From assembly GCA_964016885.1 (NCBI GenBank), contig OZ024748.1, positions 19,096,001 through 19,160,000 on the forward strand: a DNA stretch of 64,000 nucleotides, in the 5' to 3' direction. This stretch comes from Eledone cirrhosa. Taxonomy: Eukaryota. This document shows, one piece after another, positions 2,510 through 57,752 of this stretch. Under the pieces are notes generated by a model that was given only the letters and a program-made list of their open reading frames with translations, was not told the origin of the DNA and did not search any database. Both the position numbers and the translations under genes were made by a program. Position 1 is the stretch's first letter, and every line of letters begins with the position of its first letter.

Positions 2510-2734
2510 AAGTGGTTACACAACAGTTAGTTCACCATATCGAGAACAATTGTTTCACCTTATCGGATCCTCAGCTCGTAATGGCTCGTAACGATTAAGA
2601 GCTGAGGATCCGCCAAGGTGAAACAATTGTTCTCGGTATGGTGAACTAACTGTTGTGTAACCACTTCTACCTAACTCGTCCCATGGACTGAGTGCTCTAC
2701 TACTAAGGATATTACCTTCCAGTGATCTACTACT
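2510..2734. mobile_element. Fold-back element (palindrome 2510-2666 plus unique tail) inside (TA)n, with a minimal hammerhead-like motif
   Basis: Arms of about 70 bp; gag-CTGAGGA-tcc gccaa ggt-GAAA-C AATT G-TT-ctc at 2599-2634; (TA)n on both sides. Stems I and II are weak. Confidence 0.6.
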
Positions 2735-2946
2735 ATATATATATATATATATATATATATCATAAATCACGTCCTTAGAATTATTAGATAAAATATATAC
2801 CATTTCCTCTCCCAATTAGCATAATTAACCATATAAAAAATCAATTAGACCAAGCTATAAGAAGAAAGGCTCTTATGAAGAAATCTCCGACAAATAACTT
2901 TATGTATATGTAAATCTTTATATTTTATATATATATATATATATAT

Positions 2947-3150
2947 AGAGTGGGTAATAGGAACAAGTAAGACCTCGACGGCCGAGCTCAAGCCGCTTCG
3001 ACGGCTAATTCTGTACTGAATTAGCCGTCAAAGCGGCTTGAGCTCGGGGGTCGGGGTCTTACTTGTTCCTATTACCCACTCTACTACCCTAAGTATTGAG
3101 TACTTTGGTGCGTTATGGTCCACCTGGTTCCTTACCACATTTCCTTCGTT
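2947..3150 (+). mobile_element. Hairpin family A copy (TA-embedded fold-back element)
   Basis: Palindrome centred on ggctaattc...gaattagcc plus the conserved tail ...ggttccttaccacatttccttcgtta, flanked by (TA)n. Confidence 0.8.
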
Positions 3151-3840
3151 ATATATATATATATATATATAGAGAGAGAGAGAGGGAGAGAGAGAAAGAA
3201 AGTGCTAAAGATAGATAGAAGAATCGACCCAAATCTTGCCAGGTACATTTTTTTTTTTATCAATCTCGAAAGAAATAAAAGTAAAGTTGACCTTGGTAGG
3301 ATTTGAACTCACAGCCAAGTGAACCGGAACGAAAACTACAAACCATTCTATCCGTCTATTAAACACTCACACACACACACATAAACACAAAGAAACACAC
3401 ACACATACACACACACACATAAACACAAAGAAACACACACACATACACACACACACATAAACACAAAGAAACACAAAGAAACACACACACATACACACAC
3501 ATAAACGCAAAGAAACACAACATTCTCGAGAATTTACGAGTAACAGCCTGTTGTTTTTGTGGTCTAGACTATATATGTATCTGTATGTCTGTGTATATAT
3601 ATGTATGTTTGTGTGTATGTATTATTATACGTGTATATGTGTGTATATATGTGTGTGTGTGTGTGTGTGTACTCAGGTGTTATGTGTATGTGTATCTGTA
3701 TATCTGTATGTATCTGTGTGTCTATCTACATGTCTGTATGAATATGTTATATGAGTATCTGTGTGTCAGTGTGTCTATCACTCTCTCTCTCTCTCTATGT
3801 GTGTGCATCTGTATGCCTATACGTATGTGTGTGTCTGTAC

Positions 3841-4009
3841 GTGGTCGCAATATGGCCGAATGGTTAAGTCGTTCGCCCCGTAATCCTAAAATCCAGAGTT
3901 CAATCCCATTTCGTGATATCTTGAACAAGTGTCTTTTATCATGACTTTGGGGCGACTTGAAACATTATCAGTGAAATTGGGTGGACGGAAACTGTTTGGA
4001 AGCCCGTCC
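3841..4009 (+). mobile_element. tRNA-derived SINE family D (also about 22628-22765 - and 61738-61875 +)
   Basis: A box tggccgaatggttaag, B box gagttcaatccc, shared 3' part gtgaaatt..gt.gacggaaactg. Confidence 0.65.
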
Positions 4010-4109
4010 AATGGACTGTACCAGTAATTAATAGGTCAACCTTCTTACACACATGTGAAACTGGATCTCCCCGAGAATTACGTTAAAGGTACACGTATTT
4101 GTGAAGACG

Positions 4110-4385
4110 CACAGCTTAATGGTTGGTAGGGATATTTGACGTAAGATCATAATGTCGTGGGTTCGATTCCTGGGCAGGCTGCTGTGTTGTGTTCTTGAGC
4201 AAAACACTTTATTTCACGTTGCTCCAGCACACACTCAGCTGAGAGCGAGTACCAGCAGTAGCTGGGAAGTTAAACCTGCGATAGACCGGTGTCCTATCCA
4301 GGGTGAGCCTTGTTCTCTCAGTTGCTTAACACTAAGTAAACATCAGCCCGACGAGGTTTCAGTTTTAGACAAGTCTTTAACATTA
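4110..4385 (+). mobile_element. tRNA-derived SINE family C (other copies at about 8856-9135, 33705-33830, 33897-34035, 44378-44507)
   Basis: B box GGTTCGATTCC and shared body gtgttcttgagcaaaacactttatttcacgttgctccag. Confidence 0.75.
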
Positions 4386-4859
4386 ACTGATACACGTGTT
4401 TGTGGAAAACTCAGACACTCACGTTATTTCATGAGCAGACTAGTCCAGTGATCGGACAACTGCGAAACTCATCGTCAAAACTGACGCAGATCCATCCCAC
4501 ATCTGTGTGTATGTGTGTTGCTTATATATCGTTGGTTGGTATTGTTGCTGCTGTTGTTGCTGAATGTAAACAGATCTACTGCTGTTTGCATTATGTATGT
4601 TGTGTATATGTATATATATATATATATATATATATATATATATATATATATATATATATATATATATATATATATGTATATGTGTGTTGTGTGTATATGT
4701 GTGTGACTATATTTCTGTAGTACGTGTGTATCTATGCATGTGTGTCTCTCAGTGTTTGTCTGTGTGTTACTGTGTGTATGTCAGTGTGTGTGTGCGTCTG
4801 TGTATGTGTCTGTCTGTATGTATATGTATATACACACATACCCGCTTATACACACATAC

Positions 4860-54428: not shown

Positions 54429-54827
54429 GGCCAGAAGTAAGATTCAGATGGGAACCAGTATACCCCCTGCCCACTATTAAGGACGCCGCCCGCCGCCGGA
54501 CATCAAGGTATTCCATTTATTGGAACACTTGGATAAGGCATGATCATCACGACCTCACATTTTCTTTTCACCTAAAATACGCACCCTTTGTATCTAACGA
54601 AACATATGTATGCATGTATGGTCCCATAACTCCTGATAGAGTCGTAGGGGTACCGTAATGACATACGGCGTTTTATCGCCATTTTAAAACATGGCGGAGC
54701 CCATCCCTCTCCAGGCCTCACTACAGCAGATTTCTTTCAGAAAAATGAGAGAGAGGAAATGAGAAAGATATAGAGGAAGATTCGAAAGATATAGAGAAAG
54801 ATTCTCCCAGAGAGAGGAAAAACTGAC

Positions 54828-54966
54828 ACCAGTACTAGACTGGTACTATTTTATCGACCTCGAGTGGATGAAAGGCAAAGATAACCTCGGCGGGATTTGA
54901 GCTCAGAGAGCAGAGAGCCGAAACGAATACCTTAAAGCATTCTATCCGACGTTCTAACGACTCTGC
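54828..54966 (-). mobile_element. SINE family B-related copy whose head seeds a minisatellite
   Basis: ggtactattttatcgacctcgagtggatgaaaggcaaag...cggcgggatttgagctcag. Confidence 0.75.
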
Positions 54967-55275
54967 CATTCTATCCGACATTCTAACGACTCTGCCATTC
55001 TATCTGACGTTCTAGCGTCTCTGCCATTTTATCCGACGTTCTAACGACTCTGCCATTCTACCCGACGTTCTAACGACTTTACCATTCTAGTCGACGTTCT
55101 AACGACTCTGCCATTCTATCCGACGTTCTAACGACTTTACCATTCTAGTCGACGTTCTAACGACTCTGCCATTCTACCCGACGTTCTAACGACTCTGCCA
55201 TTCTATCCGACGTTCTAGCGTCTCTGCCATTCTATCCGACGTTCTAACGACTCTGCCATTCTATCTGACGTTCTA
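54938..55275. repeat. 29-bp minisatellite (about 11.5 copies)
   Basis: Unit cattctatccgacgttctaacgactctgc. Confidence 0.95.
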
Positions 55276-56274
55276 GTAAACCGCAAACTACGGACACACA
55301 CACACACACACACACGCACACACACACACACACACACACACACACACACACACACACACACACACACACACATAAAAGCCTCAAATCTTTAATAATTGCA
55401 ACTAAAAATCAAATCTGTAAACTGTAAATAATATCCGAATTGACAACAAAGCACAAGATTAATCAATTATAAATGGGTTTGCATAGAATTGAGTAAATTT
55501 TACCCCAGAGTATTACTGGTACGTATCTTATCAACTCAGAAGCGGTGCAAAGCAATGCAGGCACAGTTAAAGTACTGACAGCAACAACAACAACAGCAAC
55601 AACAGAGCCAATGATAACAGCAAGAACATTTACGGTGAGTGAGGTTATGTAATCAAACAAATTAACATTTTTTTTTCATTCTTCAACATTTAAGGTCTTG
55701 AGTTTCATTTAAGAATTCACCATCATCATCATCATCATCATATTCAGAGTTATCATTATCACGGTTTCCCCTTTTTCCTCCTCCTAATAAATAAATAAAT
55801 AAATGAATATGTATATATATATATATATATATATATATATATATATATATAGAGAGAGAGAGAGAGAGAGAGAGAGAGAGGGGGATAGAAGAGGAGGGGG
55901 ATAGAAGGGGAGGGAGAGAGACGGGGAGGGTGAGAAACATTCTTACCCGATTTTTTTTTTTAGAGAAAGGCCTCAAATTTCATATAGCTTAAGGCCTCAG
56001 TTGAAAGTCCGACCCTCTATACTGTACTCTTCCATATAAATTACTTAGAATATTTTCTACTTGTGCTGAATACACATTGAGGAAATGAATCTGGCCCACT
56101 TTAGGTAAATTAACCACTGCACTGCACTGCATGTCCCTCGCAGCTGCACTCGATTATGTAGCGAGGGTAACCAGTAAAGTAACACTACTGAATAATATTG
56201 ATGATGATGATGAAGAGGAGGTGGAGAAGGAGGTGGAGGGAGAGGAGAGGAGAGGAGAGGAGAAGGTTAATTAC

Positions 56275-56537
56275 AATAATAATTGTTTCTACTTTAGGCA
56301 CAAGGCCAGCAATTACGCAGTGCATTACTGGTACTTTATTTTATCGACCCCGTAAGGATGAAAGACAAAGTTAACCTCGGCGGGATTTGAACTCAGACTG
56401 TAAAGGGACGTAACTATGCTAGAAAGCATGGCGTCCAACCCTCTACCGATACTGCCAATTCACCGCCCTTAATTACAATAATAATTGTTTCTACTTTAGG
56501 CACAAGACCAGCAATTACCCAGTGCATTACTGGTACA
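56275..56537 (-). mobile_element. SINE family B plus partial tandem duplicate
   Basis: Full unit followed by a repeat of ttaattacaataataattgtttctactttaggcacaag. Confidence 0.85.
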
Positions 56538-57545
56538 ATAATAATGAATATTAATAATACTCAATATATCATTGTAGACTCGTTATTGTGAATAATGAAA
56601 CTAACACACAGGCAGTTGTTATATATATATAGATATATATAAATTTATATATATATATATATACATATATATATATGTATACATACATACATATGTGTAT
56701 ATATATATACACACACACACACACACATATATATACTATATATATATATATGTCGAGAGCTTTTCATTCGGAATGTGGAGCGGAATTGAATTCCTTTATT
56801 CACACTTTGAATTTACTCGCCAAAAACCGGGGGTTACTTCCCTTGTTGGAAATAACACGTGACAGTGAAACACCGGGGGCTACAAACGATAGCATCTTGA
56901 GGCATAGAACGAAATTTCCTGTTGATGACGTGAATCCTCAGTTCGATCATAGAATACCACAGGCCTACATATTACGTAAGCTGGATGGATGATTTAATAT
57001 TCATAGAAACCTATCGAACATATTGCAAAATATCGTTCGATATGTCCAGGTCAGTTGCCTAATCTGATTAGTTTCTTCGTTGTTTTTGGTATTGTGTCGC
57101 TAGGTCTGCATGCCGCAATTTTCAATTTGTTAAGCTGTCTAAACGTATGTTATTACTCTAAGGCCCGACCTTATTGAGTGGTTTGCTACTCATTCCTTAT
57201 TGTAGGTCGACTTTGCTTGGCCACAGCGAAAGCTTCGATTTTACTAAGCTTCCACTTGTCTCTCTCTCTCTCTCTCTCTCTCTCTCTCTCTCTCTCTCTC
57301 TCTCTCTCTCTCTCTCTCTCTCCTCTCTCTCTCTCTCTCTCTCTCTCTCTCTCTCTCTCTCTCTCTCTCTCTCTCTCTCTATATATATATATATATATAT
57401 ATATATATATATATACAGCTCTAGTCCTGTAGAATCTCATCTATATTAAAACTTTTATACTCCGCTATGTATTGAGTACCTTACTTACTGTGGTTACCTC
57501 CGATTCAACCCGGAATAACGTACATATATATATATATATATATAT

Positions 57546-57752
57546 AACGAAGGAGTTGTGGTAAGGAACCAGATGGACCATAACGCAGTAGAGTACTCAA
57601 TACTCAGGGGGTAGTAGAGTCGGTAATAGGAAAAAGTATGACCCCAACGGCAGAGCTCAACCGTTTCGACGGCCATTTCCGGAGTGAAATAGACGTCCAG
57701 AAATAGCCGTCGAAACGGGTTGAGCTCTGCCGACGGGGTCATACTTTTTCGT
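57546..57752 (-). mobile_element. Family A copy (diverged)
   Basis: Reverse-oriented tail plus hairpin, flanked by TA repeats. Confidence 0.8.

Follow-up and report, generated by a model that had tools for sequence, protein, structure and literature searches.

The question raised by a 64,000-nt stretch of the 3.0-Gb Eledone cirrhosa assembly (contig OZ024748.1, positions 19,096,001 to 19,160,000; the whole stretch is hereafter called the window) is what the short fold-back elements in its TA microsatellites are and how they arise. A preliminary description had regarded them as non-autonomous, ribozyme-bearing derivatives of Penelope-like elements (PLEs) or retrozymes colonising TA repeats. 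The preference for (TA)n and the hammerhead-type folds hold, and so does the link to PLEs. The elements are, however, truncated insertion products of autonomous PLE families and not a separate non-autonomous class. They are best read as 5′-truncated 3′ ends (pseudo-long terminal repeats, pLTRs) of at least seven PLE families, paired head-to-head in (TA)n and likely built at each insertion by two separate primings.

A self-comparison of the window after masking revealed inverted repeats at five loci, designated E1 to E5, and at six further pairs or arms of a recurrent family, designated family A. The window is rich in microsatellites (152 TA runs), and (TA)n adjoins E1–E5 as well as the family A copies, as had been proposed. 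The repeat arms were located at positions 2511–2665 (E1), 13587–13752 and 14051–14216 (E2), 14352–14665 (E3), 19605–19781 and 19946–20122 (E4) and 26990–27325 (E5). E1 (2511–2733) is an inverted pair of pLTR ends with a tail-less left arm (−) and a right arm (+) that continues into a 67-nt tail (2667–2733). In E2 (13420–14222) the left arm (−) is short and continues into about 165 nt of tail (13586–13420, −), and the right arm (+, 466 nt) is long and tail-less. For E3 (14352–14740) and E5 (26983–27419) the right arm of the inverted pair is tailed (14666–14740 and 27335–27419, respectively), and in E4 (19540–20122) the left arm (−) bears the tail (19540–19604) next to a tail-less right arm (+, 333 nt). 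Since one arm carries a tail, E2, E3, E4 and E5 are longer than first given: the repeats were placed correctly, whereas E2 starts near 13420, E3 ends at about 14740, E4 starts at 19540 and E5 ends near 27419. An additional inverted pair, E6 (27437–27827), with a 33-nt tail on its left arm, had been missed.

In total, 14 PLE-linked elements were counted in the 64 kb, or about one per 4.6 kb, which agrees with the earlier estimate of one per 4–5 kb. The same families contributed 4 elements per 130 kb in thirteen arbitrary 10-kb stretches of the genome; the window is thus several times denser in these elements than average, the families having been picked from the window.

Every arm proved to be a genome-wide repeat, with 270, 1,446, 2,586, 124, 667 and 1,334 candidates in a first look and 3,647, 1,122 and 7,042 matches in exact pattern searches that gave none in the controls. 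Longer copies of all six families (E1–E5 and A) extend upstream into frames for a reverse transcriptase (RT) and/or a GIY-YIG endonuclease (EN). For E1, E2, E5 and family A, these are broken frames with an RT carrying the motif GxYRDD and a GIY-YIG domain. From E3 only the GIY-YIG end was recovered, which is of the same type, and E4 has a broken RT frame with WKRYLDD followed by GIY-YIG (PF01541, E = 1.7e-5). The E4 piece was the only one with a Pfam GIY-YIG match above the cut-off; the E1 pieces had no Pfam match. Upstream of E6 a GIY-YIG frame alone was found, 39% identical to that of E4. The proteins of the five GxYRDD-type families (E1, E2, E3, E5 and A) are homologous at 33–50% identity, so that the description of the elements as sequence-unrelated stands for the DNA and fails for the proteins. 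A homologue search returned 4,686 matches at E ≤ 1e-10. Within the window itself, inspection by eye of the 146 open reading frames (ORFs) of at least 100 amino acids revealed no RT or GIY-YIG frame, as already stated in the preliminary description.

Intact enzymes were identified in a sister subfamily of E2 (86% identity). Three of its copies contain uninterrupted frames of 832 codons in pLTR-ORF-pLTR units of 4.17–4.2 kb (loci L263, L265, where the frame spans 654–3152, and L266), in addition to one frame with a shifted end (L264) and a broken one (L267). Neighbouring E2 motifs on the same strand lie about 4.2 kb apart with ORFs between them, and the family A unit measures 3.6 kb (L269). These units exceed 3 kb owing to long 3′ untranslated regions (UTRs). 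Full-length tandems were recovered only from family A and the sister subfamily of E2, and there the tail forms the beginning of the following unit's 5′-UTR. The arms of truncated copies grade from 40 nt to more than 3 kb and reach into the coding region, and no tandem arrays of 150–450-bp monomers were seen in the loci read. These copies show the organization of EN+ PLEs, namely a single ORF with RT before GIY-YIG, partial tandems of pLTRs, an inverted 5′-truncated partner and a tail.

By their motifs, E1, E2, E3, E5 and family A are classified as Hydra-type. DKT (in E1, the E2 sister subfamily and A), a CxCx5C linker (in E1, E2, E5 and A) and a terminal CxxC plus CxH without CCHH were recognised by eye, E3 being judged from its EN end alone. 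The N-terminal motif is RWR, not RWK, in the E2 sister subfamily and family A. The E4 motifs GLKF, WKRYLDD and CGRSNCGTC, compared with the GxKF, CX2-5CxxC linker and CCHH-type C-terminal EN of Neptune and Nematis, exclude the Hydra clade and do not separate these two, so that E4 is termed Neptune/Nematis-like; E6 entered this comparison with its EN.

The arms of E1–E5 carry a predicted fold of the type-I hammerhead kind. The motif GAAA-palindrome-UH, which the preliminary description had pointed out, was confirmed on both arms of each of these elements. It occurs at 12 sites in 4,055 nt of elements versus 3 in the remaining 59,945 nt. In 2,000 dinucleotide shuffles it appeared in 0.25–0.9% per single arm and never in all five arms at once. 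A descriptor of the type-I fold that admitted five cores, the variants among them chosen after the elements had been seen, and required stem I to pair matched 11 window sites; in 1.38 Mb, consisting largely of copies retrieved with these families, it matched 296, versus none in the same DNA reversed. The strict canonical descriptor matched E5 alone, and E6 had no hammerhead by the type-I descriptor. In the Rfam scan of the window, no hammerhead family was among the best 150 of 278 matches.

Hammerhead numbering and the expected effect of core changes follow general knowledge of this ribozyme. The core is CUGAGGA in E1 (2602–2631, +; followed by GAAA CAAUUG UU, with the mirror copy at 2574–2545, −) and the canonical CUGAUGA in E5 (27233, + and 27082, −), which has a stem I of 8 bp. 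In E4 (20016–20045, +; mirror copy from 19711, −) it is the U3-A8 covariant UUGAAAA with the loop CG, in E2 (14135–14173, +; mirror copy from 13668, −) CCGAAGA with U4C, and in E3 (14532, + and 14485, −) the degenerate CCGUCGA with a long stem II insert. Among genomic copies these cores were found in 24/29 (E1), 27/28 (E5), 38/38 (E4), 32/35 (E2) and 40/44 (E3), and for family A the core was CUGAGAA in 22 of 30 copies and the U3-A8 form in a minority of 5. The CUGANGA-like 5′ core described earlier is therefore canonical in E1 and E5 only and altered in E2, E3, E4 and family A. The type-I core is retained by E1, E5 and, in its U3-A8 form, by E4 and a family A subfamily, and uncompensated changes occur in three of the six families (E2, E3 and main family A). 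Stem I differs in sequence among the families and yet pairs in each, as the descriptor demanded. Family A, thought to be minimal with TGAGCTC as loop, turned out to have a 5-bp stem III closed by this loop plus a long stem II. Most of its copies are truncated within the loop of stem II and are devoid of the 5′ core, which is present in a single window copy, at 48900 (−; UUGAAAA). An AATAAA just downstream, described earlier as often present, is restricted to E3, E4 and E5, and that of E5 belongs to stem I.

The flanks contained no fewer than 20 additional hammerhead types that differ in their stems (loci L024, L049, L104, L231, L273, L351 and others), which indicates that the genome has many more PLE families than the window shows. 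An apparent hypervariability of hammerhead positions, for which two different template RNAs or A-to-I editing were considered, was rejected: the differing single sites are alleles of the queries used. Unselected arms were nearly uniform at the queried sites (E4, 17/17 A; loop II of E1, 9/9 T; family A, 79/86 C). The unbiased listing of E2 gave two main subfamily alleles common to both arms of a pair, and position 11.1 of E3 was mixed in unselected arms (G 6, C 9, A 3, T 2).

A total of 162 head-to-head pairs was collected, five of which could not be scored at locus edges. Of the remaining 157, 152 have exactly one tail, three have none and two have both. For queries blind to the tail, one-tail pairs made up 44 of 46. 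Since 226 arms are tailed and 260 tail-less overall, independent pairing would give only about half one-tail pairs. One of the two double-tail cases, L263, is a pair of inner pLTRs; the outer ends of the same insertion again comprise one end with and one without a tail. This 9.3-kb insertion (C1:56974700–56984600) was observed to hold a full-length unit in each inverted arm, one with an intact and the other with a shifted frame.

Centres and arm lengths vary among the 128 pairs measured. In 50 pairs the tailed arm exceeds the tail-less one, in 33 the reverse holds, and in 45 the two are equal within 5 nt. One example is L266 (301 vs. 3,249 nt, with the tail-less arm longer), and in the window the tail-less arm is also the longer one in E2 and E4. 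The junctions are flush or overlapping in 67 pairs, with a gap of 1–10 nt in 35 and of more than 10 nt in 26. As the centre differs from copy to copy, the fold-back is likely made anew at each insertion. Both arms of a pair come from the same subfamily: in E5, alleles differed in 8 of 278 comparisons within pairs vs. 43% between pairs, in E4 three sites differed in 0/16, 0/16 and 0/17 pairs, and in family A three sites differed in 3/38, 1/44 and 2/44. At other sites the arms of one pair are 1.3–3.4% diverged, compared with 1.3–3.6% for unrelated copies. Both kinds of arm end at TA-like letters of the element.

The tails of the Hydra-type families (E1, E2, E3, E5 and A) share the motif Y-W-GAG-(T-R)-CT about 20–45 nt past the tail-less end in otherwise dissimilar surroundings; those of E4 and E6 lack it. 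A coral Hydra sequence printed before Hydra-1_Obim has a similar TTGAGCACT at its 3′ end (PMC8557442). The shared motif is a candidate protein-recognition site between two RT starts. Folding of the tails gave no structure common to them.

In vitro, a Poseidon PLE protein for which a dimer is predicted was shown to nick both strands and extend them, starting at two internal sites that bound the tail (PMC11167929). The simplest joint reading of these results and the pair data is that each event involves two primings, with each site and each strand used for one of them. The RT/GIY-YIG complex of the element would nick a TA run on both of its strands. Reverse transcription would then be primed by one 3′ end at the distal internal start site, yielding the tailed arm, and by the other at the proximal site, yielding the arm without a tail; each priming would use a TA-like spot, and the RNA would be of one subfamily. 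The cDNAs would finally be joined at their far ends, mostly flush or via a few shared letters. More tentatively, the smallest pairs might result when a transcript from the pLTR promoter has both start sites close to its 5′ end and both cDNAs run off the end of the RNA; such run-off would give recurring MITE-like sizes (MITE, miniature inverted-repeat transposable element) without any non-autonomous family. The strictest version, in which each inverted insertion reflects one ribonucleoprotein using each RT start once on opposite strands and the tiny fold-backs are run-off products of the capped 5′ end of the pLTR transcript, is given slightly less than an even chance. The hammerhead would cut tandem transcripts to unit-length RNA, probably only as a dimer or with the help of protein, and would be a passenger in the stubs.

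The run-off step draws on the positions at which short arms end, counted for arms not selected by their own query. In E4 the ends fall at 134–143 nt in 15 of 24 arms; the A located 30 nt below a TATAAAA box is at 139. In the window this box is at 19944–19950 and the A, a predicted transcription start where arms pile up genome-wide, at 19974 (+). Arms of family A end at 48–61 nt in 27 of 34 cases, the peak falling on TTAGTC or TCAGTC some 30 nt downstream of an AT-rich box, and those of E5 at 159–161 nt in 10 of 31. Relative to the hammerhead core, the E4 peak is located 42 nt and the E5 peak about 70 nt upstream. There are 1,122 E4 sites without the template C before the peak A; by hand count, the base there is G in 46, T in 35 and A in 19 of the first 100 listed. 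Of 30 fetched E4 arms, 26 start at the peak A, 13 of them with G. Before the E5 peak the non-template base is G in 4/7. As a control, an extra G preceded 25 of 144 non-A starts vs. 21 of 69 A starts. A TATA box at this distance from an initiator (Inr) and an added G opposite the cap are known signatures of transcript 5′ ends. The E4 peak and the excess of G fit run-off at a capped 5′ end, short of proof. In the E1 pLTR, GCGCATGCGC and CTTCC motifs were observed just upstream of dispersed arm ends at 60–99 nt (L004, L008 and L017, about 1440–1490 in oriented coordinates). We take these to resemble the NRF1 and ETS sites of TATA-less promoters.

The pairs could also arise by self-priming of a single strand at a palindrome, with the tail-less end marking a stop of copying or a re-cut; snap-back on an antisense template was proposed by Arkhipova et al. 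(2013; PMC3846280). The strict one-tail pairs and the subfamily alleles common to both arms would follow naturally, several centres are palindromic (CATATG in E5, CACATC/GATGTG in E4), and the 45 equal-length pairs also fit this explanation. A strand copied on itself cannot extend upstream beyond its template, and the longer arm should then always be of one class, yet both asymmetries occur, by hundreds to thousands of bases. This weakens snap-back, and many arms that begin at the E4 peak directly against (TA)n have no partner at all; we consider it unlikely. Mobilisation of fixed, retrozyme- or MITE-like units, transcribed and self-cleaving, would account for the thousands of similar-sized short copies in the pattern searches, for the canonical core on both arms of E1 and E5 stubs and for the pLTR origin argued for animal retrozymes (bioRxiv 10.64898/2026.07.22.740005). 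Such units are hard to reconcile with centres that vary per copy, arms grading into coding sequence, the lack of monomer arrays in the loci read and the existence of intact autonomous relatives; moreover, the 5′ core is absent from most stubs of family A, and so would be the upstream promoter if the peaks mark transcription starts. This makes such units quite improbable, and the non-autonomous origin given in the preliminary description is not supported. Two specific identities were rejected: a MITE or terminal-inverted-repeat DNA transposon by asymmetric ends, variable centres and the RT/GIY-YIG link, and a non-LTR retrozyme by head-to-head instead of head-to-tail tandem pairing and by the ORFs enclosed between same-strand E2 motifs. 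Fold-back chimeras are a known artefact of long reads. In four contig sets compared with E2 and E3, high depth and other centres were found and no short-read contig spanned the window's own centres. The public contigs nevertheless show other E3 centres, and the 1.3–3.4% divergence of the arms, their termination at two sites specific to each family and the single tail of each pair leave a sequencing or assembly artefact with a negligible probability.

Concerning the run-off step alone, the recurring short sizes could instead reflect pauses of the RT at RNA structure such as stem II, or preferred annealing sites. The family A peak covers about 14 nt within the loop of stem II, and the E5 peak sits on the palindrome CATATG, so that annealing or pausing could explain both. 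Opposed to this are the distances of the E4 and E5 peaks from the hammerhead core, the A exactly 30 nt below TATAAAA, and G as the commonest non-template base before both peaks; pausing or annealing is given about one chance in three. Several further points weigh against two primings followed by run-off. Of the 13 E4 cases with G, about eight could derive from the partner arm or a local repeat and about five could not (by eye), and most family A cases are equally ambiguous. For E1, E2 and E3 the arm ends form wide peaks or none at all, E1 and E3 have no evident TATA box, and transcription start and cap are themselves predictions. The samples consist of top-scoring or first-listed copies in which a few pairs duplicate one insertion (L072/L073), and the clades were assigned from motifs read by eye against PMC8557442. 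Two separate primings nevertheless remain the likely explanation for the pairs.

The other copies in the window belong to family A. Pairs are located at 2948–3149 (cut within the stem II loop, right end tailed), 15155–15362 (with a separate inverted tail piece at 15411–15491 across a TA run, 15155–15491 in all), 20238–20413 (diverged, left end tailed), 43160–43346 (right end tailed, 43267–43346), 49172–49341 and 57547–57752 (both with the left end tailed). Single arms were found at 46890–46989 (+; diverged, with a partial tail) and at 48798–48915 (−), which is tail-less and the sole copy in the window with a whole hammerhead. A further TA-flanked inverted element with short internal duplications, E7 (12735–12921 and 47317–47392), also occurs in one of the arbitrary stretches (L282) and is probably one more PLE end. 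A 102-nt repeat of 98% identity adjoining TA runs (2761–2862, + and 44750–44851, −) and GAAA-CGATCG-T motifs at 23946 and 44901, inside related 60-nt pieces, are possibly additional ones.

Amid these repeats lies a host gene for a Maf transcription factor (24579–25397, +), with an uninterrupted frame of 272 codons and a bZIP_Maf domain (E = 2e-29). A minisatellite with 20-nt units (38075–40148) forms a large inverted arrangement of about 1.76 kb, 87% self-complementary and centred near 39265. A family of about 190 nt resembling short interspersed elements (SINEs) is present in a dozen copies, often as tandem pairs (7645–7833, 13002–13134, 28923–29597, 31255–31652, 46286–46609, 50654–50853 and 56267–56536).

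How PLEs form tandem and inverted structures and why microsatellites are favoured are named as open questions in PMC8557442. The 152 one-tail pairs out of 157, the two-way asymmetry of the arms and the start-site peaks distinguish twin priming from self-priming. Since the class of element and its architecture were already known, the gain is mechanistic detail and not a new system. If run-off and twin starts apply, the genome would hold thousands of fossil products of 5′ rapid amplification of cDNA ends, mapping the transcription start and both RT starts of each family to the nucleotide. An intact 832-codon Hydra-type enzyme would then be at hand for the model, and families would have kept spreading after decay of the hammerhead core. 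Such stubs are easily mislabelled as MITEs, SINEs or microRNA hairpins; among the best 150 of 278 Rfam matches in the window, those to microRNAs were sub-threshold only. An annotation of Octopus vulgaris used MITE and SINE finders, and such stubs are not discussed in the parts of its text considered (PMC13282606).

Inverted 5′-truncated partners, one-sided tails and the (TA)n bias have been described (PMC8557442), and opposite-strand hammerhead pairs are likewise published. Added here are the near-strict one-tail rule, the common subfamily of both arms, the finding that either arm can be the longer, and the piling up of short arms at initiator-like sites. No published statement of the near-strict tail coupling or of the run-off reading was found in titles and the openings of abstracts, a scope that excludes subscription papers and bioRxiv supplements.

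The E1, E2, E3, E5 and A families agree with the Hydra clade, including Hydra-1_Obim of Octopus bimaculoides, in the C-terminal GIY-YIG without CCHH, in DKT, CxCx5C, CxxC, CxH and GxYRDD, and in the 3′ type-I hammerhead, (TA)n insertion and inverted 5′-truncated partner (PMC8557442). The U...U flanking stem II in E1 is found in many of the Hydra motifs listed there, and Hydra-1_Obim itself is listed with a (TA)n preference in the supplement of Craig et al. (2021; PMC8557442). In contrast to that clade, at least five families coexist in one genome, units measure 3.6–4.2 kb compared with generally less than 3 kb (a descriptive and not a diagnostic trait), tails 67–165 nt compared with 30–40, RWR replaces RWK in two families, and E2, E3 and family A have non-canonical cores (PMC8557442). 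Tandems of pLTRs are present here, whereas Hydra-1_Obim is listed with 'no pLTR' (PMC8557442).

With EN+ PLEs in general, the elements share head-to-head pLTRs, a tail at one end, partial tandems and an AT-rich target (PMC3846280, PMC2377424, PMC11167929), as well as TATA/Inr-like motifs in the pLTR (PMC3846280) and a tail between two RT start sites (PMC11167929). In the EN+ PLE literature considered, the tail is said to be optional or frequently confined to one end and no counts are given, while it was one-sided in 152 of 157 pairs here, and the pile-up of arm ends at Inr-like sites differs from the descriptions given there (PMC3846280, PMC2377424, PMC11167929). The RT start sites have TA-like letters matching the target, which were not homologous in Frangieh et al. 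(2024; PMC11167929).

The hammerheads are similar to the minimal ones of metazoan PLEs in their short palindromic helix III, dimer-type design and U3-A8 covariant, and in the thousands of solo motifs from truncated PLEs and the opposite-strand pairs 100–700 bp apart (PMC4209133). They differ in the stable 5-bp stem III of family A, and the core changes of E2 (U4C), E3 (U4C plus A6U) and main family A (C3 with A8) are unmentioned in the parts of PMC4209133 considered. Finally, the elements are, like the animal non-LTR retrozymes, small and non-coding, with a type-I hammerhead and an ancestry in PLE pLTRs (bioRxiv 10.64898/2026.07.22.740005; PMC7229834). Retrozymes, however, consist of head-to-tail tandem units (bioRxiv 10.64898/2026.07.22.740005), whereas the elements of E. 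cirrhosa are head-to-head pairs with variable centres.

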